From NCBI RefSeq assembly GCF_000010065.1, contig NC_006576.1, forward strand, positions 1,560,001 through 1,592,000: a stretch of DNA of 32,000 bases. The letters are read 5' to 3'. Source of the stretch: Synechococcus elongatus PCC 6301 (lineage in GTDB: Bacteria > Cyanobacteriota > Cyanobacteriia > Synechococcales > Synechococcaceae). Positions 1,815 through 21,765 of this stretch are shown here, piece by piece. The notes under the pieces were generated by a model. It saw only the letters and a list, made by a program, of their open reading frames with translations. It made no database searches and was not told the DNA's origin. A program made the position numbers and the translations under genes. Numbering within the stretch: the stretch's first letter is position 1; each line of letters begins with the position of its first letter.

Positions 1815-2942
1815 ATGGCTAAGCAATCCTATCGGAAAATTCCTTACACCAAGCCTTCAATTACTGAGCTGGAGATTCAATATGCAACTGATGCAGCCCG
1901 AAACGGCTGGGGTGAACATTGCTATGACTACATCATCCGCTTTGAAGAAGCATTTAAACAACACCTAGGTGTGCAATATGCCATTGCAACCAGTAGCTGT
2001 ACTGGTGCTTTGCACATGGGTATGCATGCTTTAGGGATTGGTCCTGGTGATGAGGTGATACTGGCCGATACGAATTGGATAGCTACTGCAGCTCCAATTA
2101 TTCATCTCGGGGCTATACCAGTCTTTGTGGATATTTTGCCGGATAGTTGGTGTTTAGATCCTGAGCAAGTTCAAGCTGCTATTACACCTAAGACAAAGGC
2201 AATCATAGCAGTGCATTTATATGGAAATCTTTGTGAGATGGATGCTTTGCTGGCAATCGGAGAGCGATACAGCATTCCTGTTATTGAAGATGCAGCCGAG
2301 GCAATTGGGTCGGTCTATCACGGTAAGCGGGCAGGTAGCATGGGTCGCTTCGGAGCATTCTCATCTCATGGTACCAAGACCATTACAACTGGTGAAGGCG
2401 GGATGTTTGTCACCAATGATCCGGAACTATATGAACATGTTCTAACGCTTTCTAATCATGGAAGAGCTCGCGGGCAGACTAAGCAATTTTGGCCTGACAT
2501 GGTCGGCTTTAAGTACAAAATGAGTAATATCCAAGCTGCAATTGGCTATGCTCAAATGCAACGCATCGAGATTCTTATACATATGAAACGTAAAATCTTT
2601 TCGATGTATCAGAACTATCTTAAGGATCTCCCAGTTCAAATGAATCATGAGCCTAGAGGCTGTACGAATGGGTACTGGATGCCAACATTTGTGGTTAACG
2701 AAAAAGTTTCTTTTAATCGCAATAAGTTGATTAGCAAGCTGAAATCAAATGGGGTGGATGCTAGGGTGTTTTTCTGGCCTCTTAGCTCAACATCAACCGG
2801 AGGCCGTAAAGCCTTAGATAAGCCTTACCTTTCAGAAAGCATTCATCTACATGCACTAAATCTTCCTTCTCACTACCAACTTAGCAATGAAGAAAGTATG
2901 TTTATTTGCACTCTTATAAAGAATACATCCTTTTCTGGGTAA
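1815..2942 (+). CDS. DegT/DnrJ/EryC1/StrS-family PLP-dependent NDP-sugar aminotransferase
   Basis: 375 aa. ATSSCTGALHMGMHALGIGPGDEVI and the PLP-lysine motif FSSHGTKTITTGEGGM. It starts 3 nt after the preceding stop. Confidence 0.85.
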   Translation: MAKQSYRKIPYTKPSITELEIQYATDAARNGWGEHCYDYIIRFEEAFKQHLGVQYAIATSSCTGALHMGMHALGIGPGDEVILADTNWIATAAPIIHLGAIPVFVDILPDSWCLDPEQVQAAITPKTKAIIAVHLYGNLCEMDALLAIGERYSIPVIEDAAEAIGSVYHGKRAGSMGRFGAFSSHGTKTITTGEGGMFVTNDPELYEHVLTLSNHGRARGQTKQFWPDMVGFKYKMSNIQAAIGYAQMQRIEILIHMKRKIFSMYQNYLKDLPVQMNHEPRGCTNGYWMPTFVVNEKVSFNRNKLISKLKSNGVDARVFFWPLSSTSTGGRKALDKPYLSESIHLHALNLPSHYQLSNEESMFICTLIKNTSFSG

Positions 2943-2976: not shown

Positions 2977-3660
2977 ATGAATACAAACTGCATTAGGAAT
3001 CTCATTCATGATCTCAAGTCAAGTGACCACACTAGCTTCTCGAAGATGAGAATACAAATACTCAATGATGATGGCGAAAGAGTTGGTTATCTTATACCAA
3101 TAAATAAGCATCTGGCAAGTAATCCTTTTGTCATACAGAAACTGACTAAGTGGCGAAAGATGTTTAAAAAATACTTTCTAACTCAATTCACACCTACAGA
3201 AAACAGAACAAAAAGCTGGCTAGAATCTGTAGTTCTACCAAGCGGCAACAGAGTATTGTTTTTGATATATACATCTAGTAATGACATCATAGGTAATTTC
3301 GGAATTTGCGATTTAAGCGAAGAAAAAGCAGAACTGGATAACTTAATTCGCGGAGAGAAAGGAGGCCACCCACAGCTAATTTACTTTGCTGAACTATCTC
3401 TCCTAAGATGGCTTTTTTATGACCTTTGTATTCCCAAGGTGTGCTTGCATGTTTTCTCGAATAACTACAAAACAATTTCACTCCATGAGAGTGTAGGTTT
3501 TCGCACAACTGCGAGTTATTCCCTAGCTAAAGAAGAGCATTTAGATGAAATCAAGTATACTCCTTGTGAGGTTTTTGATAGTAATTTTAGCGAGTTCTCC
3601 TACTTAGAGATGACCCTTATTGCTTCGGAGTTCAAAAAAATCCATGAGTGTTTAAGATAA
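2977..3660 (+). CDS. GNAT-like (RimJ/RimL/PseH-like) acyltransferase, putative amino-sugar N-acyltransferase
   Basis: 227 aa. Pattern WRKMF..F...T.E.T..WL, then IGNFGI.., E..NLIRGEKGG, then V.LHVFSNNYKTISLHESVGF resembles the GNAT fold. Assigned from pattern memory only; very AT-rich. Confidence 0.45.
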   Translation: MNTNCIRNLIHDLKSSDHTSFSKMRIQILNDDGERVGYLIPINKHLASNPFVIQKLTKWRKMFKKYFLTQFTPTENRTKSWLESVVLPSGNRVLFLIYTSSNDIIGNFGICDLSEEKAELDNLIRGEKGGHPQLIYFAELSLLRWLFYDLCIPKVCLHVFSNNYKTISLHESVGFRTTASYSLAKEEHLDEIKYTPCEVFDSNFSEFSYLEMTLIASEFKKIHECLR

Positions 3661-3692: not shown

Positions 3693-4460
3693 ATGAAAAC
3701 TCCTCAAGAACTTGCATTTCAAGCTGAGAAGGCAACCTTAGTGGCACAGCAGGGCGAGAACCAAAAAGCTCGTGAGCTCGCCTTAGAATTTCTAAATGAA
3801 ACTGGAAATACAAAATATGCCTACCACTTTTCTTGGATAAACAGGCCAATAGTACAGCTACCTCAAGACATTGTCGCTTTTCAAGAAATTGTTTCCTCTG
3901 TTCAGCCAGACATTATCATCGAAACAGGGGTTGCCCATGGTGGCTCCCTCGCTTTGTCGGCTTCACTGCTATGCCTGCTAGATGTTATGGAAGGCTTAAA
4001 CCCGCGTCAGTCTAGCCGTAAAGTCATTGGTGTTGATATTGAGATTCGTCCCCACAATCGCAAGGCATTAGATGAGCATCCCTTACGATTCAAGATGGAG
4101 CTCATTGAAGGATCGTCGATCGATCCCAAAATTATTCAACAAGTAAAGAGTCATGTACAAAGCTCAGAACGGGTCTTAGTATCGCTCGACTCAAACCATA
4201 CTCATGAGCATGTGATGGCTGAGCTAAATGCCTACGCTAGTTTAGTCACTGCAGGTAGCTATTGTATCGTTTTTGATACTGTAATTGAAGATTTACCAGC
4301 AGGCTCTTTTCCCGACCGGGCTTGGGATGTAGGCAATAATCCTAAAACTGCTGTGCACGAATGGCTGAAGAGTCATCCTGAATTTGCGATCGATAAAGAT
4401 ATTGATAACAAACTACTGATCAGTGTTGCTCCAGATGGATATCTAAAACGGATTTTTTGA
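3693..4460 (+). CDS. CmcI/cephalosporin-hydroxylase-family SAM methyltransferase (sugar O-methyltransferase-like)
   Basis: 255 aa. FSWINRPIVQLPQDIVAFQEIVSSVQPDIIIETGVAHGGSLALSA is the hallmark CmcI-family N-terminal core. Confidence 0.7.
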   Translation: MKTPQELAFQAEKATLVAQQGENQKARELALEFLNETGNTKYAYHFSWINRPIVQLPQDIVAFQEIVSSVQPDIIIETGVAHGGSLALSASLLCLLDVMEGLNPRQSSRKVIGVDIEIRPHNRKALDEHPLRFKMELIEGSSIDPKIIQQVKSHVQSSERVLVSLDSNHTHEHVMAELNAYASLVTAGSYCIVFDTVIEDLPAGSFPDRAWDVGNNPKTAVHEWLKSHPEFAIDKDIDNKLLISVAPDGYLKRIF

Positions 4461-4530: not shown

Positions 4531-5679
4531 ATGACAAAATTTTCTATTATTATTCCCACACGAGAAAGGGTAGGAACCCTTCTCTATACTCTTCCTGCTT
4601 GCCTCAGAGTTGAGCGCGACGATATTGAGTTCGTCGTTTGTGATAACTATAGTCAAGATGGCACAGCAGATTATTTAAAGTCTATTCAAGACCATCGCGT
4701 CAGGATATATCGTACTAATCAACGACTTTCTATGAAAGATAACTTTGAGCATGGGCTTGCGCGTGCTCAAGGTGAATATATTTGTTTTATGGGCGATGAC
4801 GATCTAATTATCCCAAGTCTTTTTCCACTTGTCGAAAAAGAACTAGAAAATGTAGAAACTGTTTGCTGGAATCGCTGGGTTTATTATTGGCCTGACTCCT
4901 ATGAATCACCTAATATGCTGATAGTTAATAATAATAATTTTAGTGTTATCTTAAGCTCGTCAAGGGCTTTAGATTTTGCCCTGCGATACTTCTTAAACTA
5001 TCAGAACTTACCATCTCTCTACAACTCATTTACCCATCGAAAAATCGTTCAAAGAGTTATTAATTATAACTGTCTAAACTTAGAAACTGAAAAATTTTAT
5101 CCTCAAGATGCAATTTCTCCTGATGTATTTTCTGCTTTGCAAATACTCAAATTTACCAATAGTTTTGCTCATATAGGACTACCTTTAACAGTTTCAGGCA
5201 TATCTAGTTCAAGTAATGGAGCAGGAGTTAGGAATAACTCTGAGGAATCAAAAAAGTTCATTCAAGAGTTAAAAGTCGAGAAGCTTAGTGATTTATTGCA
5301 CGTTTCTTTGTCAGCATTATTAACCCAGAAGATATCATATTACATAACTAATTTAAGTGATTATATAAGCTTTATCATAAACTATATACCAGAAACCTTG
5401 CAAGAAGATATATTTCTTGATCTGATTGCATCTGGATGTAGAACATTATTTGATATCGGGGATATTGATGCCGATACAGCAACTCAGTTTATGGCTGGTT
5501 ATGATATTTCCCCGTGGGTGGTAAATGGGAGGCTCAACTTGATGGATCAGGGATTTTATACCTTGTTTAGAGTTCCTATGTTCAATAGAGTAGTTATTAA
5601 TGGTGATGAACATAGTCTTAGTAACTCTCTTAATGCATCAGTATTCTTAGATGATTATTTCAGCTCTTTAATATATTGA
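4531..5679 (+). CDS. Family 2 glycosyltransferase
   Basis: 382 aa. FSIIIPTRER, VVCDNYSQDGT, GEYICFMGDDDLI (GT-A DxD region). Confidence 0.75.
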   Translation: MTKFSIIIPTRERVGTLLYTLPACLRVERDDIEFVVCDNYSQDGTADYLKSIQDHRVRIYRTNQRLSMKDNFEHGLARAQGEYICFMGDDDLIIPSLFPLVEKELENVETVCWNRWVYYWPDSYESPNMLIVNNNNFSVILSSSRALDFALRYFLNYQNLPSLYNSFTHRKIVQRVINYNCLNLETEKFYPQDAISPDVFSALQILKFTNSFAHIGLPLTVSGISSSSNGAGVRNNSEESKKFIQELKVEKLSDLLHVSLSALLTQKISYYITNLSDYISFIINYIPETLQEDIFLDLIASGCRTLFDIGDIDADTATQFMAGYDISPWVVNGRLNLMDQGFYTLFRVPMFNRVVINGDEHSLSNSLNASVFLDDYFSSLIY

Positions 5680-5852: not shown

Positions 5853-6371
5853 ATGAGATTACATATTGGTGGAAGAGAAAAGCATCCGGATTGGAAAATT
5901 TTTGATGCTCTAGAACGACCAGAAGTTAACTTTGTTGGTAATGCAGCTGATTTAAGCCAGTTTGCAGATGACTCGATCGAAGCAATTTATGCAAGCCATG
6001 TGCTAGAGCATTTTCATCATTCACTAGGAAATGAGCTAGTTTCAGTCTTGCTAGAGTGGAGACGGGTCCTACTACCAAATGGAAAGCTATATATTAGCGT
6101 ACCAGATTTACAGACCTTAAGTTGGCTCTTTTTAAGCCCAATGGCCGGATTTCAGCACCGCCTACAGATTATGCGGATGATGTTTGGAGGACAGGTTGAT
6201 CAATATGATGTTCATAAAGTTGGGTTTGACTGCGAGATTCTATTTACATATCTGCAAGCAGCTAAGTTTTCGGACTATGAGCGAGTTGAGAACTTTGAAC
6301 TCTTCCAAGATTGTAGTAATTTAGTATTTTTGGGGTACCCAATTAGCCTTAACGTCGTTGCAGTTAAATGA
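5853..6371 (+). CDS. Small class I SAM-dependent methyltransferase (type 11-like)
   Basis: 172 aa. LHIGGREKHPDWKIFD, DDSIEAIYASHVLEHF, RVLLPNGKLYISVPD. Confidence 0.6.
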   Translation: MRLHIGGREKHPDWKIFDALERPEVNFVGNAADLSQFADDSIEAIYASHVLEHFHHSLGNELVSVLLEWRRVLLPNGKLYISVPDLQTLSWLFLSPMAGFQHRLQIMRMMFGGQVDQYDVHKVGFDCEILFTYLQAAKFSDYERVENFELFQDCSNLVFLGYPISLNVVAVK

Positions 6372-6375
6372 ATCT

Positions 6376-8277
6376 ATGAGTACTCAGGACAACAGTTTGG
6401 CAGAAAATTATTACCAACAAGCGATCGAGCAATGGAAGTCTAGAGATCAGAAACAAGCACTTCAATTTTTTAAAAAAGCAGTGAGAGCAAAGCCAAGTAA
6501 TGCTCATTATTGGTATGCACTGGCTGGAACATACCATATACAGAACAAGTTTCGTGCAGCTCGCTTTTGTTTTGAAAAGTCACTTAATTTAAATCCTAAT
6601 CAAGATGAAATCAAAATTTTTCTGTGCGAAATATGTTATTTACTAACAGATTATAAATCTGTCGCTTATTATGCTGGACAAGTAGATTTGAGTAAAATTC
6701 AAAATTTAGAGATCTTATATAAAGTTGCGTGCTCTTTTAAAGAACTTGGTCAGCTGGAGAAAACTGGTCAAGTCTGCTCTCAAATTTTGTCATTAGATGA
6801 TAACTTTTGGCAGGCAAAACTACTTGCTGCTGAGATACTAAGAATAAAGGGTTATTCAGGAGAAGCTAAAGTATTAGTTTTAGAATTAATAGACCAACAA
6901 CCTACCGTCGGTAAATTTTGGAATGAACTCGGTATTAATGAAGTTGATCTAGCTCATGAAGATGAAGCTTTATCCGCATTTTCTAAAGCTGAGCAATACG
7001 TATCTGGACCGGAGAAACTAATTATAGGAAGTAATTATTTATTTGAATTTTCTAGTGGGCTTAGAACAGCTAAAGATATTTTAGATGCACATTTACTTTG
7101 GAATAAAAAATATTGTAAAGATCAAGGTGGAAGTTTTCAATCAAGCAAGTTCAATTATTTAAAATCAAATGATAAAAAAAACATTGCCTATCTCTCGGGT
7201 GATTTTAAAACACATTCCGTAAGTTATTTCATTGAAGGAATTTTGGAGAATCACTCACGGGATGCGTTTAATATTATCTTGCTCTCGAATACTCAAGAGG
7301 ATGAAAAGACAAAAAAATTTAAGGAGTTAGCAGATATCTGGATTGACTTAAAGTTAACTAATTTTGAAACAGCTGCTCAGATTGTTAAAAGGCTAAATAT
7401 TGATATTCTTATTGAGCTTTCTGGACATACAAATGGTAACAAACTGAATCTTTTAAGTTCAAGACTAGCACCGGTTCAAGCTACTTATCTTGGCTACTTT
7501 GCTACAACAGGATTATCAACAATAGATTATTGGATAACAGACAATGTTGTTCACCCTGCTCACACTGTAGAGTTAGCAACAGAAACTATTTTTCGACTAC
7601 CACGGTGCTACTTGGCTTACACGCCACCACCTCAATCACCTAGTATCGCAGAGTCTCCAGTTATTAAAAATGGATATATTACATTTGGCTCTTTCGTTGC
7701 AAGTCGAAAGATTAGTGACTATTCAATCCTACTGTGGTCTTCTATCTTAAGTGAGATTCCGAATAGTCAGCTTTTAATTAAGAACCGAAGTTGCGTTAGC
7801 CCATTGTACCGCTCTGAGCTAATAGAAAAGTTTTCACTCTGTGGCATTAGTTCTCAGCGAATTAACTTCAACGAGGCTAAATTGAACTTAGAAGATCATC
7901 TTGCACTGTATAACAAGGTTGATATTGCACTTGATACCTATCCAGCGAGTGGCTGTACAACCACTGTCGAAGCACTCTGGATGGGTGTCCCAGTCTTAAC
8001 TCGCCTTGGTGAATTAATGGTTAGCCGTAATAGTGCTTCTTTGCTCCATGCACTCAATCTCCAAAATTGGATTGCAGAAACAGATGAAGAATACATTGAT
8101 AAGGGTATCAAATTTACTCAATCCATCGAACAGCTTGCCCTGTTAAGACAGGGTATGAGAGAGCGATTTATGCAGTCTGAACTCTATGATTCTAGGGGTC
8201 TCACCCTCCACCTAGAAGACTTTTATCTAAAAGCCTTACAGGAGAAGTTGAGCGCCAATAAAGAAGTTAGATTTTGA
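6376..8277 (+). CDS. TPR-repeat + GT41 (O-GlcNAc transferase / SPINDLY / HMW1C-like) glycosyltransferase
   Basis: N-terminal TPR-like repeats (AENYYQQAIEQW..AHYWYALAGTY..FEKSLNLNPNQ). C-terminal GT41 signature: IAYLSGDFKTHSVSYF, IDILIELSGHTNGNKL, APVQATYLGYFATTGLSTIDYWITD. The ORF track starts at a TTG (6358) that overlaps the previous gene; I prefer the in-frame ATG at 6376. Confidence 0.8.
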   Translation: MSTQDNSLAENYYQQAIEQWKSRDQKQALQFFKKAVRAKPSNAHYWYALAGTYHIQNKFRAARFCFEKSLNLNPNQDEIKIFLCEICYLLTDYKSVAYYAGQVDLSKIQNLEILYKVACSFKELGQLEKTGQVCSQILSLDDNFWQAKLLAAEILRIKGYSGEAKVLVLELIDQQPTVGKFWNELGINEVDLAHEDEALSAFSKAEQYVSGPEKLIIGSNYLFEFSSGLRTAKDILDAHLLWNKKYCKDQGGSFQSSKFNYLKSNDKKNIAYLSGDFKTHSVSYFIEGILENHSRDAFNIILLSNTQEDEKTKKFKELADIWIDLKLTNFETAAQIVKRLNIDILIELSGHTNGNKLNLLSSRLAPVQATYLGYFATTGLSTIDYWITDNVVHPAHTVELATETIFRLPRCYLAYTPPPQSPSIAESPVIKNGYITFGSFVASRKISDYSILLWSSILSEIPNSQLLIKNRSCVSPLYRSELIEKFSLCGISSQRINFNEAKLNLEDHLALYNKVDIALDTYPASGCTTTVEALWMGVPVLTRLGELMVSRNSASLLHALNLQNWIAETDEEYIDKGIKFTQSIEQLALLRQGMRERFMQSELYDSRGLTLHLEDFYLKALQEKLSANKEVRF

Positions 8278-10813
8278 TATGATGAGCAATCGCACCCATC
8301 ATTTTTTTGATTTGTATTTCCCAAGACATTGTTTGGTGTATGGAAACAGAGTGGCTTAATGCTTTAGTTTTCTGTTCTTGGTAATTCTGATAAACCTTCT
8401 CTAACCATGCAACTACTTCTTCTGGGTCAGATTGTCCCCAACCTTCCGTGCCAACATAGGGATAGTAAGGTTTGACAGGGTTTTGAGTTTCCAGAGCGTC
8501 AATCCCAAATAAGTGGATGAGGTCTAGATGACCTGTATTTTTGGAGAGTAAGGTTGGGATTCCACAGGCGATCGCCTCCATCGCCACTAAGTTGGTTCCA
8601 CCCTCTGCCCGATTCGGGAAGATGGCAGCATGGGCTTCTCGAAAGACATGGGGCATTTGAATATTGGGTGTAAAGCCTAAGCAGTAAAAAGAATCTTCTG
8701 GCAAGCCATTCTCAATCAGCCATTGACTAATGTTTGATCTGAGGTCACCTTCTGTTTTGGGTAAGCCCTCTACATAGCCAGCATGTTGAAGGCCATTCAT
8801 ATATTGAGGCAATGCAGTACTCCAATTACAAAGCAATAAAGCCTCTGGGTGCTGTTGTTGGAAGTGTTTAAAAGCTTTAACAACAATATCCTGTCCTTTG
8901 CGATACTCTAGTTTGCCGCCTGAAAAGATGACAAACCGATCGCCAAAATAGCCAGCTGCTTGACTTGGCTGAAAGAGCGTAGGGTCTACACCTTGAGGAA
9001 TACCATAGGCATTGCCTTGATAATGTGCAGCGACTAGATCATTACACCATGTTGAACCAGAGATAATCACAGGCAAACGGTTAGCTCTCTCTTTTCCTGA
9101 GGGTGTTATATACGTGTCTTCCATAAAAATTAAGCCAGCCCTATGAGTAAAGGGAAATTCATACTCCCTAGACTGGAAATCATTCATCATTGCCTGCAAG
9201 ATCAGCAATTTCTGATTAAGTCCCTGATTGAGTCGCTTTAGTACATAATTATCATTCTCAGGATCTAAAACTGGGAGATCTAAAACTTGTGGATCAACTA
9301 GTGGATGGAAATCTTGGACATTTAAGTAAGGACTTTTGAGACAAATAGGAAACCATGACCCCTTTTGACGATAAATCTGAAGGATAAAATTAGTTCCGAA
9401 GACTCCCCAGCCCGTATAAGTTGAGATTAGCCAATCAAACGCGATTCCTCTTTGTTTCTTCTTGTTACAGTTACTTATAACTCTCTCTAAATCAGAATCT
9501 GGCTGAACATTATTGAGGATATTTGTCTGATCTTTTTCAAAAAGAGTAATAAAGTTCTTGACAGAATTTTCAGCAAACCGAATCTTATTTAACAAGAAAT
9601 TAATTTTGGTTAGTCTCAGATTACTTTCAAGCTGTAAGTCATCTGAGTTATTGTTTTCTAAATTGGCAGCTTCTGCAAGTGGACTTTGAAACTTGCGCAG
9701 TTGTCGGTCTAAACTATTGTTCGGATAGCGCTGGTATTGTACTGTTTCAACATCAATTTGAACACCATTGCAAAATCGATAAAGACAATCTCTCAGTGCA
9801 ATATCCTCTGTACATCTGAGCCGTTTATAAACTAACTGAGAAGGAAATCCCTCAACAAACTGAAAGACTGATCTTCTAACTACTAAATTGATTGGTAAAG
9901 AGTCTATGATTCGCTGATGCCACTCTGGCAATATCTCTTCGTCTACCTTGACCCCTAAGCTTACAAAGCCATAGGGCGGATGACCATTAATATTTCGGAT
10001 GAACTTGGTAACGTCTTGATCGAGTGAAATGCCCGCATATTCAAACAGCCGATCTAAAATCTGAGGCTCGTCGAGTGAAATCTCCAAGGCTAGCACGCCT
10101 AGAAGGAGATGTTTTTCTAAGAAGAGATCATCCCCATCGCAGAAAAAGAGAACTTCACCTTGGCTAAAATTGACGCCAGTGTTTCGTGCGATGCCAGCTC
10201 CCCGATTGAAGCGATGACAAACAAGCTGAAAATGAGTTTTGTTGTTAATGTAAGCTTGAATAACAGCAACCGTGTTATCCGTCGAAGCATCATCAACAAT
10301 GATGACTTCTATGTTATACAAGCTAGAGAAAGGCAAATTATCTTGGAAAAATTGAATCGACGCTTCAATACTTTTTAATGTCTGCTCAATTTTAGAAGCA
10401 CAATTATAGGTTGGAACAATGACAGCTAGCGACTGGGCTGAAGGTTGCCAATGTTGTGGAAACTGGTGTAGGCAATTGATTAGCTGGGTTGCTAATGGTT
10501 CAGGGATACGCTGTAAATCAGTATTCTGCTTTACAGTCTGCAAACAAGATTGATTGCGCTCTAGCAACGCACCGAGCAACCCAGTCTGACAATCTGTGCC
10601 ATGGCAGGCAATTTCTTCAATATTAACGCCATTTTCGCTGGCTGCCCAAGCCGCTTCAATCAGCGCTGTGTTGACTTGTTCTTCCTCAGTACCTGCCGTA
10701 TCAATCAACAGACTGGCTGTTTCCTGAGTGACTTGTTGCAGTGCTGCACTGATTTGCAGGACTGCTTTTTGATCAGGAGAAGCCCAATGCGGACGGAGCC
10801 AAAGAAGAGCCAT
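8267..10813 (-). CDS. Bifunctional glycosyltransferase: unknown N-terminal ~130 aa + GT2 domain + C-terminal GT1/GT4-type (GT-B) domain
   Basis: 848 aa. GT2: AVIVPTYNC, IIVDDASTDNT, GEVLFFCDGDDLF. GT-B: GWGVFGTN and FPNRAEGGTNLVAMEAIACGIPT. Its 3' end overlaps the convergent GT41 gene by 11 nt. Confidence 0.75.
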   Translation of the reverse strand: MALLWLRPHWASPDQKAVLQISAALQQVTQETASLLIDTAGTEEEQVNTALIEAAWAASENGVNIEEIACHGTDCQTGLLGALLERNQSCLQTVKQNTDLQRIPEPLATQLINCLHQFPQHWQPSAQSLAVIVPTYNCASKIEQTLKSIEASIQFFQDNLPFSSLYNIEVIIVDDASTDNTVAVIQAYINNKTHFQLVCHRFNRGAGIARNTGVNFSQGEVLFFCDGDDLFLEKHLLLGVLALEISLDEPQILDRLFEYAGISLDQDVTKFIRNINGHPPYGFVSLGVKVDEEILPEWHQRIIDSLPINLVVRRSVFQFVEGFPSQLVYKRLRCTEDIALRDCLYRFCNGVQIDVETVQYQRYPNNSLDRQLRKFQSPLAEAANLENNNSDDLQLESNLRLTKINFLLNKIRFAENSVKNFITLFEKDQTNILNNVQPDSDLERVISNCNKKKQRGIAFDWLISTYTGWGVFGTNFILQIYRQKGSWFPICLKSPYLNVQDFHPLVDPQVLDLPVLDPENDNYVLKRLNQGLNQKLLILQAMMNDFQSREYEFPFTHRAGLIFMEDTYITPSGKERANRLPVIISGSTWCNDLVAAHYQGNAYGIPQGVDPTLFQPSQAAGYFGDRFVIFSGGKLEYRKGQDIVVKAFKHFQQQHPEALLLCNWSTALPQYMNGLQHAGYVEGLPKTEGDLRSNISQWLIENGLPEDSFYCLGFTPNIQMPHVFREAHAAIFPNRAEGGTNLVAMEAIACGIPTLLSKNTGHLDLIHLFGIDALETQNPVKPYYPYVGTEGWGQSDPEEVVAWLEKVYQNYQEQKTKALSHSVSIHQTMSWEIQIKKMMGAIAHHIKI

Positions 10814-10898
10814 GCGGAAATTTTCAGGAACCTGAAATAAAAGCCTGCTGTAGGGGTAAGTTACTTCAAGAACAGCTCTCTTGCTGAGGATCTCCTGA

Positions 10899-11333
10899 AT
10901 GTCTGACTCCCTCCGTCTTCGTTATCTACAATATCTTGCCCAGCGTAAAGACGAACAAGGTGAAGAAGAAAAAGGTTTTACCCTTGTCGAGTTGCTGGTC
11001 GTTATCATTATCGTTGGCATCTTGGCAGCAGTTGCATTACCGAACCTGTTGGCTCAAACAGATAAAGCCTATGCCTCTGAAGGCAAATCAGCAGTCGGTG
11101 CTGCTCTTCGTACCCTTAGTGCGGCGACACTAGATCCTAACTACGTCACCAATGCGTCTTGTACACAGCTTGGTATTGGTAGCAGTGCAGGTAACTTTAA
11201 CATAACTTGCGGCAATGCTAGCCAAGTAACGGCTGCTGGAAGTGGTAAAGCAGCGAATATTAACGTGACTGGCACAATCGGGACAGACGGTAAATTTACC
11301 GTTATTGCAACCAAAGGCAGCGCAACTCTTTAA
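10899..11333 (+). CDS. pilA: Type IV pilin (prepilin), copy 1
   Basis: 144 aa. Class III signal peptide ...EEEKG|FTLVELLVVIIIVGILAAVALPNLL with Glu at +5. Long 26-aa charged leader. C-terminal Cys88-Cys104 pair. Confidence 0.9.
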   Translation: MSDSLRLRYLQYLAQRKDEQGEEEKGFTLVELLVVIIIVGILAAVALPNLLAQTDKAYASEGKSAVGAALRTLSAATLDPNYVTNASCTQLGIGSSAGNFNITCGNASQVTAAGSGKAANINVTGTIGTDGKFTVIATKGSATL

Positions 11334-11360
11334 CAGAAGAGTTAATAATATCGAATTTAT

Positions 11361-11412
11361 CTAATCAATAGACCTTTTCAAGGTAAAGCCTGTGAAAAGA
11401 TCTATTGATTAG
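11361..11412 (+). terminator. Long hairpin between the pilin copies (possible terminator, RNA-stabilising or regulatory stem-loop)
   Basis: Arms 11361-11380 (ctaatcaatagaccttttca) and 11393-11412 (tgaaaagatctattgattag) pair at 19 of 20 positions with a 12-nt loop. No clean U-tract follows. Confidence 0.4.
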
Positions 11413-11477
11413 TCATGAAGTTATTATCTCATTTCTCTAAGTAGAAGTCTAAATCTAAAAAGTGAGAGTGATCTAGA

Positions 11478-11483
11478 TATAAT
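11478..11483 (+). promoter_or_regulatory. Candidate -10 box (TATAAT) upstream of pilin copy 2
   Basis: Perfect tataat lies 39 nt upstream of the ATG at 11522, in an AT-rich spacer. A GAGG Shine-Dalgarno-like element sits at 11508-11511. No convincing -35. Confidence 0.3.
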
Positions 11484-11521
11484 TTGTATAAGCTATCTCT
11501 ATATTGAGAGGGTCACTCAAA

Positions 11522-11956
11522 ATGTCTGAATCGCTCCGTCTACGTTATCTGCAATATCTTGCCCAGCGTAAAGACGAACAAGGTGAAGAAGAAAAAGGTT
11601 TCACCCTTGTCGAGTTGCTGGTCGTTATCATCATCGTTGGCATCTTGGCAGCAGTTGCATTACCGAACCTGTTGGCTCAAACAGATAAAGCCTACGCCTC
11701 TGAAGGTAAATCAGCAGTCGGTGCTGCTCTTCGTACCCTTAGTGCGGCGACACTAGACCCTAACTACGTCACCAATGCGTCTTGTACACAGCTTGGTATT
11801 GGTAGCAGTGCAGGTAACTTTAACATAACTTGCGGCAATGCTAGCCAAGTAACGGCTGCTGGAAGTGGTAAAGCAGCGAATATTAACGTGACTGGCACAA
11901 TCGGGACAGACGGTAAGTTTACCGTTATTGCAACCAAAGGCAGCGCAACTCTTTAA
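11522..11956 (+). CDS. pilA: Type IV pilin (prepilin), copy 2
   Basis: 144 aa, identical to copy 1 except D3E. The start is set at the ATG homologous to copy 1; the ORF-track start at 11504 is a TTG extension. Confidence 0.9.
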   Translation: MSESLRLRYLQYLAQRKDEQGEEEKGFTLVELLVVIIIVGILAAVALPNLLAQTDKAYASEGKSAVGAALRTLSAATLDPNYVTNASCTQLGIGSSAGNFNITCGNASQVTAAGSGKAANINVTGTIGTDGKFTVIATKGSATL

Positions 11957-11970
11957 CAGAGTATTTAACA

Positions 11971-12009
11971 GTTTTTAGGAATTCGGGATATTCCCAAATT
12001 CCTAAAAAC
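11971..12009. terminator. Hairpin between convergent pilA copy 2 and the GT47-TPR-GT9 gene (putative bidirectional terminator)
   Basis: gtttttaggaattcggga / tcccaaattcctaaaaac pair at 17 of 18 positions with a 3-nt loop. It overlaps the stop codon of the minus-strand gene (12002-12004). Confidence 0.5.
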
Positions 12010-14368
12010 TTGAAAGCAGATGGGCAAAGTAACAAAGCTCTATAGAAGAGTACCAAGTTAATTCCAAGTTTTGCTGCCATCTCCAATCTGGTGGGTAAGC
12101 AAGAAGAACTTTTGCTGGTGTTCCCATTGCCCCTGCCAAATGCACGATCGCAGTATCCACCGTCACCAGTAGATCCAATTCCATCAACACCCGAGCCGTT
12201 GCTGAAAAATCCACCAAGCGATTGCTCCAATCCTGAATCCCTTCCGGTAACCTACCCTCATACCCCAACTGCAGACTCACCACTTCCAGATCTGACCTCT
12301 GCATACTTTCTCGCACCAGCTCCAACATTGCTTCTAGCGAACAGCTGCGCCGATCCGCTGTCGCACTCTTTTGTATTCCTGCCCGCTGACCCGCCAGCCA
12401 AACAATTCCAACCCGAAACTTGTGGTTTTGATCCTCACGAGGCGGTGGCAACGGACAAGGCAACCAACCCTCGCGATAGGGAATATCTTTTAAGCTCGGC
12501 CACACCAACCGAGGCAACGACAGCAACGGCACCTGAAAATCAAATAATTCTTCCGTTATCTGTGCCGGAATCACCTTAATGCCCAAACTTGCCAGCGGCT
12601 CCGCAAACAACGGCACTAGTACCGCATCCGTCTGGAACTGAATACGAGCCTGCGGATAGCGATCGCGCAGCACCCACAAGTAGCGACTGAACTGAATTTG
12701 ATCGCCATAGCCCTGCTCTCCCCACACCAATAGCGATCGCTGACCCAGCTCTACCCCCTGCCATCGTGGTTGCGGATAATGCGCCGCCAACGCTGCCAAA
12801 CTCGGCTCCGCAGCAAAGCGAGCTTCATAGATATCCCAACCTTCTGCCTTGCCCTGCCGCAACAAAATTTCTGCGATCGCCAGCTGAGCATTTGCTCGTT
12901 CTGGTTCTCGCGCCACCACCTGCTGATATAGCGATAGCGCCTGATCATACCGACCTGCCAAATTGAGCGTATCAGCTTGTAGCAGTAGGCGATCGATCGC
13001 TGCCGGTACCTCTTCTAGTAGTGCTTGACTAAGAGCTAATGCCTCTTCCCACTGTTCCTGCTGCCGCAACGCCACACAAAGATTGGTGCGCAATTTTGGA
13101 TGGTGGGGCTGTGCCTGCAATCCCTGTCGATAGATTGCGATCGCCGTATCCCATTCCCCGAGTTGCGTTTGCGCCACCCCCAGCAAGTTGTAATGCTCTC
13201 CCTGCTCTGCCTCCGGCATCACCATGGAATCCAGTAAGGCCAATGCTGCTTTGGGTTGCTGTTGCGTCAACGCTAAGCGTGCTTGCTCTAAAATCCGAGC
13301 TGGCGACCGGGGCAGTGTTGCCAAATAAGTTGCGGCTGCTTCCAGATCTCCCTTAAGTCGATACCGTTCCGCCTGAGACAACAACACCGCCTCAATCTCT
13401 ACCTCTGACGCAGAAGGATGAAGCGATCGCTGATCCAAGATTTGCCACAGCGTCTGCACCTGTCGTGCCAAAGAATAGAAATAGTGCTGATAAACCTGTT
13501 GCAAATGCTGCTGCATCACCTGCCATTGATCCGTTGAAATCGCTTGAAGGAGCTGCGGTAATTCCCAACAGCGATCTTCAGCAACAGATAGCGAAAACTC
13601 TGACCAATCCAGCAACTCCGAAAACGGTAGCACCCAATCATCAGCCAAAATGACCGGAATCGCCCCGCCTGCCATCACCTCTAGCAAGCGATAGGAAAAA
13701 ATATCATGGCCACGTGGAGCTACAGAAAAGCGCGATCGGGCAATTAAATCTGTATAGACTTGTTGCTCAGCGCTTAGTCCCTCAGCCTCATCCACATAAT
13801 TCAACGTCCCCCAATAGCTTTGCTGGATCAGCTCAGCTGCAATCTCGGGTGGCTGATGAAGCCGTTGTAATTGCTCCCGCACCGGATGACTATTAGCTCC
13901 CCGAAAACTGAGTAAAGTTGAGCGATCTCGGCTTGGATAGCAATGCTGATCTAAGAGTGGCATCGGAGGAAAACTCACATCAATGCCAACGCGATAGTTT
14001 CCCAGTGTATGGCAATGACTCACCACCACCACATCCGGCAATACCTGTGCGATCGCTGGCCACTGTGCCAATGGATTCATATTGATTAGCACCAAGGGCT
14101 TGCCATAGCCACTGACCGGATGATCAAACAGAAACGCTAAAATTTCTTCATCTGTTGGAAAGCGATCGCCCTTTAAAATCGCCTTACGTTGCGATCCGTA
14201 ATACGGCCAGTTGGTCTCTAGGGCAAAATCTGCATCCAGAAAAATATAGTCTGCCTGCTCAACCTTTTCAGTCCGTGCCGGATGATGTTTGAGAACAGTA
14301 AAGAAGCGATCGTGCCAAACCGTTCGAAATGACCAATCCCCAGCTTCAGCTAGATAAAAATAAGCCAT
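12002..14368 (-). CDS. Three-module protein: N-terminal exostosin-like (GT47) domain, central TPR repeats, C-terminal GT9-like (heptosyltransferase-fold) domain
   Basis: 788 aa. GT47-like: SRFSVAPRGHDIFSYRLLEVMAGGAIPVILADDWVLPFSELLDWSEFSLSV. TPRs: AIAIYRQGLQAQPHH, ALSLYQQVVAREPE. GT9-like: LLVWGEQGYGDQIQFSRYL, VTVDTAIVHLAGAMGTP, DWRW. Confidence 0.75.
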   Translation of the reverse strand: MAYFYLAEAGDWSFRTVWHDRFFTVLKHHPARTEKVEQADYIFLDADFALETNWPYYGSQRKAILKGDRFPTDEEILAFLFDHPVSGYGKPLVLINMNPLAQWPAIAQVLPDVVVVSHCHTLGNYRVGIDVSFPPMPLLDQHCYPSRDRSTLLSFRGANSHPVREQLQRLHQPPEIAAELIQQSYWGTLNYVDEAEGLSAEQQVYTDLIARSRFSVAPRGHDIFSYRLLEVMAGGAIPVILADDWVLPFSELLDWSEFSLSVAEDRCWELPQLLQAISTDQWQVMQQHLQQVYQHYFYSLARQVQTLWQILDQRSLHPSASEVEIEAVLLSQAERYRLKGDLEAAATYLATLPRSPARILEQARLALTQQQPKAALALLDSMVMPEAEQGEHYNLLGVAQTQLGEWDTAIAIYRQGLQAQPHHPKLRTNLCVALRQQEQWEEALALSQALLEEVPAAIDRLLLQADTLNLAGRYDQALSLYQQVVAREPERANAQLAIAEILLRQGKAEGWDIYEARFAAEPSLAALAAHYPQPRWQGVELGQRSLLVWGEQGYGDQIQFSRYLWVLRDRYPQARIQFQTDAVLVPLFAEPLASLGIKVIPAQITEELFDFQVPLLSLPRLVWPSLKDIPYREGWLPCPLPPPREDQNHKFRVGIVWLAGQRAGIQKSATADRRSCSLEAMLELVRESMQRSDLEVVSLQLGYEGRLPEGIQDWSNRLVDFSATARVLMELDLLVTVDTAIVHLAGAMGTPAKVLLAYPPDWRWQQNLELTWYSSIELCYFAHLLSSF

Positions 14369-14375
14369 GCAGCCA

Positions 14376-15719
14376 TCAAGCCTGAGTCAGAAACAGGCAC
14401 TGATCGCGTTCTAACTCAGCTAAGAAATTCCAAACCAACTCCGCTACTGCTTCCAACTCCCAAAGCTCACCCGTCACATAATCCAACGGTTGCAACTGTT
14501 GGAAGCGCTGTACCAACTCCTGCACAGACAGCACCTTCTCAAACAGGGGCTTAATCAACGCCCCAAACAGCGGCTCATAGGTCAACAGCCCCAAAAACTC
14601 CCCATGCAACGCCCGCGCCAAACTAAAGCGCTCTCGCAACTTCAGCTTCTCCTGCAACTGCTGCTCAATCCCCGATGTTGCCAACTGAGGATGCAACTGA
14701 ACCTTTAGCCCCAACCGTTGCTCTAGAGGTAAATTCTCCCAAGCTTGGGTAGGGGCTAACGGCTGCAGACTACACCAGAAATCAAACAGGCGATTGACCG
14801 GATGCAACAGGTCGTACAAATAAGCCTGATCCAGCAAACTCGCTTCCTGGATGCCTAATGCCCAAAACGCCGGAATTTGATCGCGATCGCCAAACAACTC
14901 ACTCAGCCGCCACAGCGGGGCTTGCACCATACCCAAAAATTCCAGCCCCGCAGTCTCCAAATACTGCCGCAGGTCTGGAACGCCATAACCCTTATCCGCC
15001 TGCAACAACAGATTTGCTAATAGCCATTGTTCGAGTTCATCTTGTTTCTCTTCTTTTTGCAGTTGTAGGGGCAGGTTCCAGACCGCAGCCCGACTCAAAA
15101 CCCCTGGTTGCAGCGCATTCATTAACTCTGTCACTGCTTCCATTTCTGCCGCCTCTGGATTGCCATCCAGAAATCCTAGAAACTTGAACAGTTCCTGTAA
15201 GCGGTAATGAGCAATTCGTTGATTCTTAGAGTGTAAATTGGCGCGAATAATCCCATCAGGCTTTAGCACCGCTTTCATTTGCCCCAGCGCTGCTGCAGGA
15301 TCATCAAAAAAATAGAGCAGCTCATCACAATTGATATAGTCAAATGCGATCTCGAGCTGACCAATCTCATCCAGCCCCAGCGCATAGAACTTGACTTCGG
15401 GGAAGCCCTGAAACTTGAGTCGCTCCTGCGCTAGCTCCACCGACTTCAGCGATAGATCCACCCCAATAATTTCAGCGCCTGGATTGGCTAGCGCCAGCAT
15501 CAACGTCTTGTAGCCGCTGCCACAACCCACATCTAGAATGCAAGCGCCTTCGGTTGCTTTCAGACTGCGATCGCGCCGATAGAAAGCCGAACGAATATCG
15601 TGAATCGCCAGCGCCCCATAGTTTTCCTTGGGCGTTGCCTCCAACGGCACCCGTGGATAGGGCCCATAGTCAAACTGCGCACGGATCCGTTCCAAAGCCT
15701 CAGATGACAGTGAAGACAT
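14376..15719 (-). CDS. Class I SAM-dependent methyltransferase with ~270-aa C-terminal extension of unknown function
   Basis: 447 aa. Motif I ILDVGCGSGYKTL, IIGVDLS, VLKPDGII. AGGAG Shine-Dalgarno element just upstream of the ATG. Its stop lies 7 nt before the next gene start. Confidence 0.75.
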   Translation of the reverse strand: MSSLSSEALERIRAQFDYGPYPRVPLEATPKENYGALAIHDIRSAFYRRDRSLKATEGACILDVGCGSGYKTLMLALANPGAEIIGVDLSLKSVELAQERLKFQGFPEVKFYALGLDEIGQLEIAFDYINCDELLYFFDDPAAALGQMKAVLKPDGIIRANLHSKNQRIAHYRLQELFKFLGFLDGNPEAAEMEAVTELMNALQPGVLSRAAVWNLPLQLQKEEKQDELEQWLLANLLLQADKGYGVPDLRQYLETAGLEFLGMVQAPLWRLSELFGDRDQIPAFWALGIQEASLLDQAYLYDLLHPVNRLFDFWCSLQPLAPTQAWENLPLEQRLGLKVQLHPQLATSGIEQQLQEKLKLRERFSLARALHGEFLGLLTYEPLFGALIKPLFEKVLSVQELVQRFQQLQPLDYVTGELWELEAVAELVWNFLAELERDQCLFLTQA

Positions 15720-15905
15720 AGGCTCCTAAGTGGCAGCGATCGTATTTTGGCAGCCTACCCTGTCTAAGTCAGCTTGTTATCAAGCAGCCTAGCGGTCATT
15801 CGCAGCCTAATTGCTTCAAACCTACCCACCATGCCCATCTAGAGACACCATAAAGCCCCTTAGCCTGCTCAGTTTTCTACGTTTTGCTGGAGCTGCAAAG
15901 AAAAA

Positions 15906-15934
15906 AGGACTAGCAGTCGCAGCAGAATAGTCCT
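15906..15934 (-). terminator. Weak intrinsic-terminator-like hairpin downstream of the TPR-GT9 gene
   Basis: aggacta / tagtcct forms a 7-bp stem with a 15-nt loop. On the minus strand it is followed by a T-run (plus-strand a-run at 15897-15906). Confidence 0.3.
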
Positions 15935-15955
15935 ACAACTCAGTAAGGATTCAGT

Positions 15956-17359
15956 CTAGTAGGGTCTAGAATTCAAATCCTGCTGCAGTTGCTCAAAGAC
16001 CGATCGCCAATCCCCAGCAATCGCCTGCCGATAGAGCCGCATTGATTGATACCAAGGGGTTTCTGACCCAGTCAGACTCCAGCGCCAATCTGCGAATTTG
16101 GGCAGAAGCAGCCAAGTCGGAATCTCCAAAGCACCTGCCAAATGCGCGATCGCAGTATCCACTGTAATCAGGAGATCCATCTGATTGAGTACAGCGGCAG
16201 TATCGGCAAATGAGTGCATTCGATCAGCGAGATCACAGTCTGCCCAATCCCAGTTCTGGAGGAGTGATTGACGAGCCGGGCCTACTTGCAGGCTCCAAAA
16301 CTGACAATGATTCACCTGCAATCGCAACTGAAGAAATTGCTCTAGCGGCACACTTTTACTAGCTTGTCGCCATTGATAGCGGCGATCGCTGGTCTCTCCA
16401 GCCTGCCAAACAAAGCCAACCTGCAGCTGACGAGGATTGGCTTGGAGTCTGATCTCAGATTGCAGCGATCGCGGCAGATATCCCTGAGCGAGTGGAATTA
16501 CGTCAGCCGTGGCACCGAGTCGTTCAGGCAATGACAACAGTGGCAGATGAAAGTCGTAGGCTGATTCAGTCTCAAAAGTGAATTGGGTAGCAACTTGTAG
16601 ATTAGCGATCGCCAATTGTCGGAATAAATCGACCAATGGCTCACTAACGAGTAATAAGAGCGGTGTTTCTGGCCAGCGATCGTGCAAGACAGATAAGTAG
16701 CGGACAAACTGAATTTGATCGCCGTAACCTTGTTCGCCCCAAATCAATAGCGTTTTATTAGTGAGATCCTCGCCTTGCCAGAGGGGGCAACCAAAACTGG
16801 GGAGGCGATCGCGTAGCTCTGAAAACACCAGCAACCGACTCTCATACTCTGGCGAACCTTGCGACCAATCGCCCAGACCTAACCGCAACTTACTGCGCAG
16901 GAACTGCGACTCAGCGGCTGTCGGATCGAGTTGCAAAGCGCTATCGCAACTCGTTAAAGCCTGTGGCCAGTCCCCCAAACTCTGTAAGGCAACAGCTCGC
17001 TGATGCCAGAGGTCTGCCGTTTGTTCTGAAGCCTGATCGAGCAGAGCGATCGCTTCAGCAAATTGACCTTGCTCATTGAGAACAGCCGCCCAAGCTGCGA
17101 TCGACTGAGGGCAACCGGGCTGGAACTCTAGTACTGCTTGATAAGCCGCGATCGCTTCTTCAGGTTGTCCAGCCGCTGCTAACCAATCTCCCCACCGGCA
17201 CAAAATCTGAGGATTGTCGGGTTCCTGCCAAGCGGCCAATTCAATCAGTTGCAGCGCTGTTGACCAGTCTTGTTGACTCGCGGCCTGTTCAGCCCACTGC
17301 TGCAACTGCACTACAGATGCGGTTTCAAGATCACCAAGAGCAAGCTCTATCAATTGCAA
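15956..17359 (-). CDS. TPR-repeat + GT9-like glycosyltransferase-fold protein (paralog of the C-terminal two-thirds of 12002..14368)
   Basis: 467 aa. TPRs (AIAAYQAVLEFQPG, ALTSCDSALQLDP). LLIWGEQGYGDQIQFVRYL, ITVDTAIAHLAGALEIPT, DWRW. No in-frame ATG near the 5' end (TTG at 17359, GTG at 17311), so the start is uncertain. Confidence 0.7.
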   Translation of the reverse strand: MQLIELALGDLETASVVQLQQWAEQAASQQDWSTALQLIELAAWQEPDNPQILCRWGDWLAAAGQPEEAIAAYQAVLEFQPGCPQSIAAWAAVLNEQGQFAEAIALLDQASEQTADLWHQRAVALQSLGDWPQALTSCDSALQLDPTAAESQFLRSKLRLGLGDWSQGSPEYESRLLVFSELRDRLPSFGCPLWQGEDLTNKTLLIWGEQGYGDQIQFVRYLSVLHDRWPETPLLLLVSEPLVDLFRQLAIANLQVATQFTFETESAYDFHLPLLSLPERLGATADVIPLAQGYLPRSLQSEIRLQANPRQLQVGFVWQAGETSDRRYQWRQASKSVPLEQFLQLRLQVNHCQFWSLQVGPARQSLLQNWDWADCDLADRMHSFADTAAVLNQMDLLITVDTAIAHLAGALEIPTWLLLPKFADWRWSLTGSETPWYQSMRLYRQAIAGDWRSVFEQLQQDLNSRPY

Positions 17360-17405
17360 TCGCGGTTATTTCAACCTTTTCATCTTGGCGGATGCCAGTC
17401 AGGGT

Positions 17406-21442: not shown

Positions 21443-21765
21443 AGCAGAACGACCTAGAGAATGAGGACAGCTGGAACTACGACAAGCCTTTGCTTCGGTC
21501 AAGACAAGCAACAATCCATCTCGCTTGCGAAGCTGCATGAGGATTGAGGATTGCGATCAGACGCTAGCACGAATTTTTAGAGTTGACTACAAGCAAATCG
21601 AGTGTCATAGGAATAGACGGGTTCTATGGATTTGCGATCGCGGCTAGGTCTCAATTGATCACGATAATCAGAGCCAACCCGAATTCAATTCGGATTGACT
21701 TAAGTTCCAAAGTGAATCCTCAAACTTACAGTTTGGAACCCTAAAAAGAGCTATTAGAACTCAGG

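Follow-up and report, generated by a model that had tools for sequence, protein, structure and literature searches.

A probable major-pilin locus with its glycosylation genes in Synechococcus elongatus PCC 6301: an Ogt-led cassette and possibly accessory TPR-GT9-like enzymes

In Synechococcus elongatus PCC 7942 the soluble protein Ogt is required, via its catalytic lysine, for the lectin-reactive modification of the major pilin PilA, for piliation and for the suppression of biofilm formation (Suban et al. 2022, PMC9306852), so that the idea of pilin glycosylation by Ogt is already published. Here we analyse the corresponding region of S. elongatus PCC 6301, in a window of 32,000 nucleotides (contig NC_006576.1, positions 1,560,001 to 1,592,000 of the forward strand) that encodes the identical Ogt protein, two copies of pilA and two further proteins in which tetratricopeptide repeats (TPR) are joined to a glycosyltransferase (GT) domain. 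Genes are designated below by the last four digits of their PCC 7942 orthologues (Synpcc7942_ numbers). The window probably holds a major-pilin locus together with its glycosylation genes, that is a cassette led by Ogt, with 0045 and 0047 as possibly accessory enzymes. New here are the paralogous pair of TPR-GT9-like proteins 0045 and 0047, the very large family to which they belong, and the variability of a cassette composed of pilA, 0050 and ogt; the published PCC 7942 work on Ogt left 0045, 0047, 0050 and the sugar operon unaddressed.

Inactivation of ogt in PCC 7942 leads to robust biofilms, Ogt normally suppressing biofilm formation, and a K445A variant fails to complement though the protein is present and soluble, behaving as a null (PMC9306852). 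In the ogt mutant the ~14 kDa PilA band of conditioned medium shifts down and loses its reactivity with succinylated wheat-germ agglutinin, a GlcNAc lectin, PilA making up about 95% of the protein present in that band of the mutant; 25% of the cells are piliated versus 96% in the wild type, and competence is unchanged (PMC9306852). The same study reports a cofitness of 0.89-0.97 between ogt and pil genes, finds ogt adjoining pilin genes in 77 of 201 cyanobacterial genomes (38%), and credits Sokol and Olszewski 2015 with a settling phenotype and with UDP-GlcNAc hydrolysis by purified Ogt. Adjacency to pilA and function of Ogt are restated as accepted knowledge in a 2025 review (PMC12288463). 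A TPR-GT41 gene linked to pilA is also found in Nostoc punctiforme, where, as related in these two papers, OgtA is needed for PilA accumulation and motility, the failure of PilA to accumulate being a stronger phenotype (Khayatan et al. 2017, in PMC9306852 and PMC12288463).

FlmG of Caulobacter resembles the proteins of the window in having an N-terminal TPR domain that binds the substrate and a C-terminal GT-B domain, in being soluble and cytoplasmic, and in using a nucleotide-activated sugar (PMC7591256). It differs in its acceptor, flagellin, and in its donor, pseudaminic or legionaminic acid; no flagellin, neuB or pse (nonulosonic-acid) gene was found in the window. FlmG has been described as confined to Caulobacterales (PMC7591256), and the layout that we observed by structural models and domain scans (N-terminal TPR, C-terminal GT-B, soluble) is a likeness of architecture. 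TibC, a GT9-fold enzyme of the cytoplasm, O-glycosylates a protein ahead of its export; unlike 0045 and 0047 it is devoid of TPR and forms an iron-containing dodecamer. TfpO/PilO and PglL are periplasmic oligosaccharyltransferases that use lipid-linked glycans. The Pseudomonas and PglL-type systems share with our locus the physical linkage of a pilin gene to a glycosylation gene in a variable island, but no such oligosaccharyltransferase could be detected in the 32-kb window, either by Pfam scan or by hydrophobic segments. Adjacency of pilin and glycosyltransferase genes is also mentioned for P. syringae and Ralstonia in PMC9306852.

Ogt and the pilin genes

Exact-sequence look-up of the window proteins returned PCC 6301 and PCC 7942 records, and the window, read left to right, follows the PCC 7942 gene order, running from Synpcc7942_0058 to 0044. 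Ogt (ABB56083.1), 0050 (ABB56082), 0046 (ABB56078), 0052 (ABB56084) and 0053 (ABB56085) are identical in both strains; the 788-residue 0047 protein (BAD79642) and the pilin of the second pilA copy (BAD79641) matched PCC 6301 records only. The window is the PCC 6301 allele, with 0047 and one pilA copy slightly unlike those of PCC 7942.

Read from the ATG at position 6376, Ogt has 633 residues and is 100% identical to Synpcc7942_0051. The catalytic Lys445 is present in the context GSFVASRKISDYSIL, in a numbering that agrees with Suban et al. 2022, and the neighbouring genes 0050, 0049/0048 and 0052 are the same as in PCC 7942. A preliminary description of the window, made from the sequence alone, had mentioned an S. 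elongatus OGT homologue with cell-surface or sedimentation phenotypes; this identity indicates that the gene in question is indeed the one found here. The Glyco_transf_41 match of 144.5 bits (Pfam cut-off 25) places the catalytic domain in GT41, and matches to TPR_1, TPR_2 and TPR_8 within residues 16-102 correspond to an N-terminal TPR array, in agreement with the TPR-GT41 architecture first proposed. The best relatives in the PDB were SPINDLY (E 1.5e-79), the T. terrenum OGT (2e-64) and human OGT (2e-44), while HMW1C/NGT N-glycosyltransferases were matched weakly (about 1e-7). The PCC 6301 annotation calls the protein 'SPY protein', SPINDLY being an Arabidopsis protein O-fucosyltransferase.

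The two pilA copies encode type IVa-like major pilins and differ at 10 of 435 nucleotides and at one residue. Because this residue sits in the leader (26 residues, cleaved between G and FTLVELL), the mature pilins are identical, with a calculated mass of 11.6 kDa. The repeat is limited to the coding sequence (about 98% nucleotide identity) and its flanks are unrelated, suggesting gene conversion or selection that keeps two identical mature pilins; a single copy is present in three other lineages. The mature pilin (10977-11333 and 11600-11956) contains four N-x-S/T sequons among its eight Asn residues, about 1.6 being expected. Pilins of other ogt-carrying strains have 3-5 sequons and a single one is present in the pilin of the strain whose locus lacks ogt, in a comparison of five related lineages that are phylogenetically non-independent. 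Since the lineages are few and related, and since Ser/Thr are conserved at the same places, the sequons do not separate N- from O-linkage. The relatives of Ogt make O-linkage much more likely than N-linkage, although Ogt may act on Asn in the sequons as a weaker side possibility.

Most likely, Ogt recognises the prepilin in the cytoplasm by means of its TPR domain, while the prepilin is not yet inserted in the membrane, and would attach the first sugar ahead of export. FlmG, acting on flagellin, and TibC, acting on an autotransporter, are precedents for such cytoplasmic glycosylation before export, and HMW1C is a further one.

The TPR-GT9-like pair and its family

The two other TPR-glycosyltransferase proteins of the window had been described as GT47-TPR-GT9-like (0047) and TPR-GT9-like (0045). 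Both architectures were recovered, and the Pfam families whose search had been proposed (Glyco_transf_41, Exostosin, Glyco_transf_9 and TPR) were all found, the GT9 match of 0047 being under the cut-off. The Glyco_transf_9 score was 23.4 bits for 0045, over a span of only about 40 residues, and 19.0 bits for 0047 (cut-off 22); an NCBIfam heptosyltransferase I match was far under its own cut-off, and NCBIfam gave no match above cut-off among the proteins scanned. Over its C-terminal 449 residues, 0047 is a paralogue of 0045 (33% identity, E 1e-51).

As the GT9-like label is marginal by sequence, it was tested by structure. AlphaFold models of 0045 reached a predicted local distance difference test (pLDDT) score of 93 at full length and of 91 for the catalytic domain modelled alone. 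The top 29 Foldseek matches of this domain in the PDB were all GT9 structures (E 4e-8 to 3e-4, TM-score 0.52-0.60), among them WaaF (1psw), a Veillonella GT9 protein (3tov), WaaC (2h1h) and TibC (4rap); TibC/AAH, WaaC and WaaF were the best structural matches, at an identity of only 11-15%. A kinship with SPY/OGT, for which the full-length model of 0045 was compared with Foldseek, was rejected: the TM-score was below 0.4, reflecting a shared TPR and GT-B layout and not kinship of the catalytic domains. A profile of the GT9-like domain run against PDB sequences gave a motif-level match to WaaC only (E 0.73, DTxxxHL), the C-lobe motif DTAxAHLAGA aligning to WaaC residues 247-276 as the sole sequence-level alignment. 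This motif and the N-lobe motif EQGxGDxIQF were invariant or nearly so in sets of 54 and 26 sequences; 0045 and 0047 have both motifs. The GD and DTxxxH elements presumably have the catalytic roles that we assign to them from WaaC. Conservation of these motifs makes 0045 and 0047 look active, and the TPR domain fused to them points to an acceptor that is a protein. Both proteins are plausible as soluble glycosyltransferases with a protein-recognition module.

In 0047, residues 1-330 matched Exostosin_GT47 above the gathering score (94.4 bits versus 33.4, E 1e-26) and matched EXT1/EXT2 in the PDB (E about 2e-14). Only 29 relatives of this GT47 domain were obtained in an indexed search, mostly stand-alone proteins of about 315 amino acids; its fusion to a TPR-GT9 module was met only in S. 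elongatus, and the two are unfused in CP144288.1. The start codon of 0045 is TTG and is uncertain, its orthologues being annotated at 464-481 amino acids.

At E<=1e-3, a whole-library search with the GT9-like domain returned 36,834 representative clusters, of which 11,459 also passed E<=1e-30. The matches listed came from cyanobacteria, Planctomycetota, Proteobacteria, Verrucomicrobia, Nitrospira, Marinimicrobia and Acidobacteria, at 30-37% identity; proteins 74-98% identical to 0045, its close orthologues, were found in S. elongatus only. Our literature search found no paper on the TPR-GT9-like family, which could be approached genetically through 0045 and 0047.

We sampled 80 loci of the family from species-representative genomes and considered the genes within 8 kb. 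A pilin-like gene was present in 1-2 of the 80 loci and the pilin (N_methyl) family was not among the 25 commonest families of immediate neighbours, indicating that the family is not generally linked to pilins. The linkage of TPR-glycosyltransferases to pilin genes that had been anticipated holds for ogt in the published survey (77 of 201 genomes) and not, in general, for the GT9-like family. Flagellin genes lay beside a family member in two Marinimicrobia loci, and 9 of the 80 loci had a homologue of the GT41 catalytic domain no more than 8 kb away. Among 142 immediate neighbours, a Pfam census revealed no dominant partner (TPR 7, GT2 7, UbiA 5, methyltransferases 4).

Several family members are giant proteins. 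In Microcoleus and other Oscillatoriales, proteins of 3,248-3,341 residues contain five tandem TPR-GT9 modules, and at the C-terminus of four such proteins lies a domain homologous to residues 455-848 of 0050 (E about 1e-100). Six modules occur in a Hormoscilla protein, and in a protein from an Alcaligenaceae metagenome-assembled genome (MAG) two modules precede a GT41 catalytic domain. Multi-module proteins were likewise the top matches of the GT9-like domain in the whole library. These fusions argue that GT9-like modules, GT41 and the GT-B domain of 0050 share one pathway. When full-length 0050 served as the query for homologues, GT2 word matches saturated the search, and the matches listed comprised S. 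elongatus alleles only.

Strain variation and the acceptors of the enzymes

The window was compared with four further S. elongatus lineages, whose loci were found by exact-protein look-up (Table 1). All five share an unchanged order of 0045, 0046, a GT47 domain accompanied by a TPR-GT9 module, pilA and 0050. Two of the five have the sugar-tailoring operon. In CP144288.1 (L088), 0047 is split, its place being taken by a GT47 protein of 317 residues and by a TPR-GT9 protein that is not orthologous (34% identical).

Table 1. Comparison of four S. elongatus lineages with the window. Identities are percentages to the window protein.
Item	L084	L089 (PCC 11801-like)	L090 (IITB4)	L088 (CP144288.1)
FAD oxidoreductase 0044 (backbone)	98.5	94.5	94.7	93.2
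0045	92.5	83.9	82.6	83.0
0046	96.0	91.1	89.3	85.1
0047	87.6	78.2	77.6	80 (GT47 part only)
pilA	83	96	82	69
0050	68	83	81	67
Ogt	61	84.5	67	absent
pilA copies	1	2	1	1
Ogt length (residues)	623	633	619	none in 21 kb fetched
Other feature	DUF5672 gene in place of sugar operon	sugar operon with hexapeptide acyltransferase replacing GNAT 0055	DUF5672 gene in place of sugar operon	0047 split; second GT47 protein

Whereas backbone genes are 93-99% identical between lineages, Ogt falls to 61%, and pilA, 0050 and ogt diverge independently of the backbone: in L084, which has the nearest backbone, ogt diverges the most and 0050 nearly so. The GC content is 33-45% over 1-12 kb of the window versus 50-58% in most of the remainder. 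Both the GC shift and the change in divergence pattern occur at the junction of pilA and 0047, where the edge of the cassette is accordingly placed. From these sequence comparisons, pilA, 0050 and ogt appear to form a low-GC, strain-variable cassette that we infer to be exchanged between strains. Metagenome contigs carrying a 74%-identical 0045 orthologue (L001-L003) all stop no more than about 50 nt past the gene, as would be expected if assembly fails at the edge of a strain-variable island.

Expression and random-barcode transposon sequencing (RB-TnSeq) data for the neighbours were taken from Simkovsky et al. 2022 (PMC9260433), in Table S5 and raw counts. The genes 0046, 0047, 0048, 0049 and 0055 share the RNA-seq groups DF5 and O-A4, the latter being down-regulated in PilB::Tn5 in either medium (PMC9260433). 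In this mutant the counts parallel those of pilA, falling from about 1,900 to about 300 for 0046 and from about 800 to about 170 for 0047, and the expression of 0045, 0050 and 0051 is unchanged (PMC9260433). The counts for 0046 and 0047 come without strand information; antisense read-through from the convergent pilA, whose expression is very high, is nevertheless an unlikely cause of their co-regulation, as 0046, which is farther away, outcounts 0047, and as 0055 behaves alike. In the RB-TnSeq biofilm screen 0051 was consistent (TTBG1), 0046, 0049 and 0052 appeared in some experiments (TTBG2) and 0047 was flagged in the flask group only (PMC9260433). All genes of the locus are non-essential (PMC9260433).

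Our preferred interpretation is that of a major-pilin locus with its own glycosylation genes, which we hold to be fairly probable. In some strains, the window included, the cassette would be extended by an operon with genes for a C-methylated, aminated, N-acylated and O-methylated deoxyhexose, together with a GT2 and a methyltransferase. The enzymes 0050 and 0053 and the tailoring enzymes probably lengthen the glycan and make it strain-specific. On the higher-GC backbone flank, 0045, 0047 and 0046 may be accessory enzymes whose acceptor would be pilin or some other protein. Modification of pilin by 0045 and 0047 is plausible in view of the local synteny, the co-expression of 0047 and the fusions.

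Several observations weigh against this interpretation. On the side of Ogt, the published evidence on PilA consists of a gel shift and a lectin blot, the mutants are pleiotropic (thylakoid lumen width, phosphate level, response to conditioned medium), and pilA 0049 is the only gene of the locus in the ogt top-20 cofitness list (PMC9306852). The sequence of Ogt is closer to plant SPINDLY than to animal OGT, so that the donor sugar is not certain and may, given this kinship, deserve re-examination. Moreover, L088 keeps pilA, 0050, 0045 and 0046, and no GT41 gene was found within 21 kb around its locus. On the side of the flank, 0045, 0046 and 0047 diverge with the genome background, though faster, and not with pilA. 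The gene 0045 is not co-regulated with pilA, and an insertion mutant of 0046, possibly polar on 0047, is mostly wild-type-like, the 0046 single mutant being a sporadic weak biofilm former (PMC9260433).

The pleiotropy of ogt mutants and the lineage that keeps pilA without ogt at its locus would fit a model in which Ogt affects PilA indirectly, for instance via an assembly or regulatory protein, the gel shift reflecting some other processing defect. We consider this very unlikely, since the lectin signal is lost at the PilA band though PilA is nearly all of the protein there, the K445A variant equals a null, ogt adjoins pilin genes in 38% of cyanobacterial genomes, and ogt co-diverges with pilA between strains.

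The preliminary description had gone further and taken the three TPR-glycosyltransferases as a single dedicated pilin system, working stepwise as soluble enzymes on the same substrate. All three indeed lie within 11 kb of pilA, in an arrangement kept in four of the five lineages; 0046-0047 are co-regulated with pilA1, GT9-like modules are fused elsewhere to GT41 and to the C-terminal domain of 0050, and the GD and DTxxxH motifs are kept in both GT9-like domains. However, the family is pilin-linked in the 1-2 of 80 loci mentioned above and lacks N_methyl proteins among its common neighbours, 0045 is expressed at a low level and independently of pilA, the phenotype of the 0046 mutant is weak, 0045 and 0047 are outside the top cofitness partners of ogt, and neither co-diverges with pilA. 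Dedication of Ogt, 0047 and 0045 alike to pilin is thus unlikely; of the original claim, the published part concerning Ogt stands, and the parts concerning 0045 and 0047 are not established. The most elaborate version, a multi-sugar, strain-specific pilin glycan built by an all-cytoplasmic soluble relay (Ogt, 0050, 0053, 0045 and 0047 with its GT47 domain) and containing a rare C-methyl amino deoxyhexose, would be quite unlikely. If true, it would make 0045 and 0047 the first proteins with a known functional context in a class of TPR-guided protein glycosyltransferases with the GT9 fold.

Conversely, 0045 and 0047, possibly with 0050 and the sugar operon, could serve another acceptor such as a surface or secreted protein, a polysaccharide or lipopolysaccharide (LPS), their adjacency to pilA reflecting a recombination hotspot for surface-structure genes. 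The heterogeneous neighbourhoods of the TPR-GT9 family, the flagellin neighbours in two Marinimicrobia loci, which suggest that acceptors vary by lineage, and the low GC and variability of the island, as often seen in polysaccharide loci, are all compatible with this model, and GT2, GT4 and NDP-sugar (nucleoside diphosphate sugar) tailoring genes are typical of O-antigen clusters. It is nonetheless somewhat unlikely. A Pfam scan of the open reading frames (ORFs) detected no Wzy_C/PglL-type oligosaccharyltransferase, Wzx flippase or Wzy polymerase in the 32 kb, as had been noted before, and no ABC exporter, initiating phosphoglycosyl transferase or ligase. All glycosyltransferases are predicted to be soluble: the glycosyltransferase-domain proteins of the locus have no stretch that approaches the pilin helix or the transporter in hydrophobicity, and the only ORF of the window with at least three hydrophobic segments encodes the CitMHS transporter. 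In addition, the sugar operon ends with ogt, 0054 and 0055 track pilA expression, and Synpcc7942_0388, one LPS glycosyltransferase named in published work, lies outside the locus. Classic O-antigen assembly was rejected, the window being without an export, flippase, polymerase or ligase gene. The soluble, oligosaccharyltransferase-independent character of the system that had been proposed is supported by the lack of membrane segments and of PglL, Wzx and Wzy, while the action of all three enzymes on pilin, which was part of the same proposal, is not established.

Under the preferred interpretation of an Ogt-led pilin cassette, the remaining value lies in the PilA glycan itself (sites, linkage and composition). 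A hypervariable pilin-glycosylation cassette would bear on phage and grazer recognition and on biofilm formation in a model and production strain.

Gene map and neighbouring features

The features are listed in Table 2. The GT2-GT4 fusion, the GT2, the four methyltransferases (0057, 0054, 0052 and 0046) and the NDP-sugar tailoring set announced in the preliminary description are all present by Pfam. Eight co-oriented genes, separated by gaps of -4 to 173 nt, form an operon-like run of which ogt is the last. The divergent gene 0050 is separated from pilA by 85 nt and overlaps the end of ogt by 11 nt; 0047 is convergent with pilA, 45 nt apart. With 0046 located 7 nt upstream of 0047, these two genes are probably co-transcribed.

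Table 2. Features of the window and multi-module relatives in other loci. Coordinates are window positions, or positions in the locus named before the colon.
Feature	Coordinates	Strand	Match or remark
0058, RmlC-like cupin (dTDP_sugar_isom)	37..582	+	PF00908 E 8e-59; first visible gene of the run ending in ogt
0057, NDP-hexose C-methyltransferase (Zn-binding domain and Methyltransf_14)	579..1811	+	PF08484 E 3.6e-50; PF08421 E 1.5e-24
0056, DegT/DnrJ/EryC1 sugar aminotransferase	1815..2942	+	PF01041 E 1.5e-118; annotated 'perosamine synthetase'
0055, GNAT-like acyltransferase	2977..3660	+	PF13302 E 8e-6
0054, CmcI / rhamnosyl O-methyltransferase-like enzyme	3693..4460	+	PF04989 E 2.4e-96
0053, GT2 glycosyltransferase, predicted soluble	4531..5679	+	PF00535 E 2.4e-20; without hydrophobic segment
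0052, small class I methyltransferase	5853..6371	+	PF08241; stops 4 nt ahead of the ogt start
0051, Ogt, TPR and GT41	6376..8277	+	Glyco_transf_41 E 4.5e-42, 144.5 bits
0050, GT2 and GT4 (GT-B) fusion	8267..10813	-	PF00535 E 2e-25; PF00534 E 3.5e-12
0049, pilA copy 1	10899..11333	+	N_methyl PF07963; BAD79640
0048, pilA copy 2	11522..11956	+	BAD79641 of PCC 6301
0047, GT47 (exostosin-like)-TPR-GT9-like triple fusion	12002..14368	-	Exostosin_GT47 E 1e-26; BAD79642
0046, class I S-adenosylmethionine-dependent methyltransferase, 447 residues	14376..15719	-	PF13847 E 2.6e-21; uncharacterised C-terminal extension
0045, TPR and GT9-like glycosyltransferase, predicted soluble	15956..17359	-	Glyco_transf_9 23.4 bits
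CitMHS transporter	20138-21538		sole polytopic membrane protein of the window
Giant multi-module TPR-GT9 proteins, filamentous cyanobacteria	L004:2193-12806, L019:696-10442, L030:1881-11762, L036:2307-12137, L076:2064-12089		3,248-3,537 residues overall
Two-module TPR-GT9 and GT41 protein, Alcaligenaceae MAG	L066:3013-8487		

Among the neighbours, 0056 has been classed as a true xenolog beside a genomic island (PMC3025956). The GT-B half of 0050 also matched PF20706, 'Family 4 glycosyltransferase in conflict systems', with 40.5 bits (cut-off 26). To the right of 0044 lie housekeeping genes, namely the citrate-type transporter, folB, gnd, a NUDIX gene and a biotin operon.

A second patch of low GC content (about 40-42%) was observed at 26-28 kb of the window; it contains a toxin-antitoxin pair composed of an MNT nucleotidyltransferase and a HepT-like ribonuclease (27377-28034). 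Two adjacent ORFs gave no informative family match, the one at 24757-25683 having a weak ferritin-like match only and the one at 25761-26525 having no Pfam match. In other S. elongatus strains a pair made of a BrnT toxin and an MqsA-like antitoxin is inserted between 0044 and 0045 (L084:9216-9837, L001:9207-9798); in the window the gap between these two genes is only 46 nt (17360-17405).

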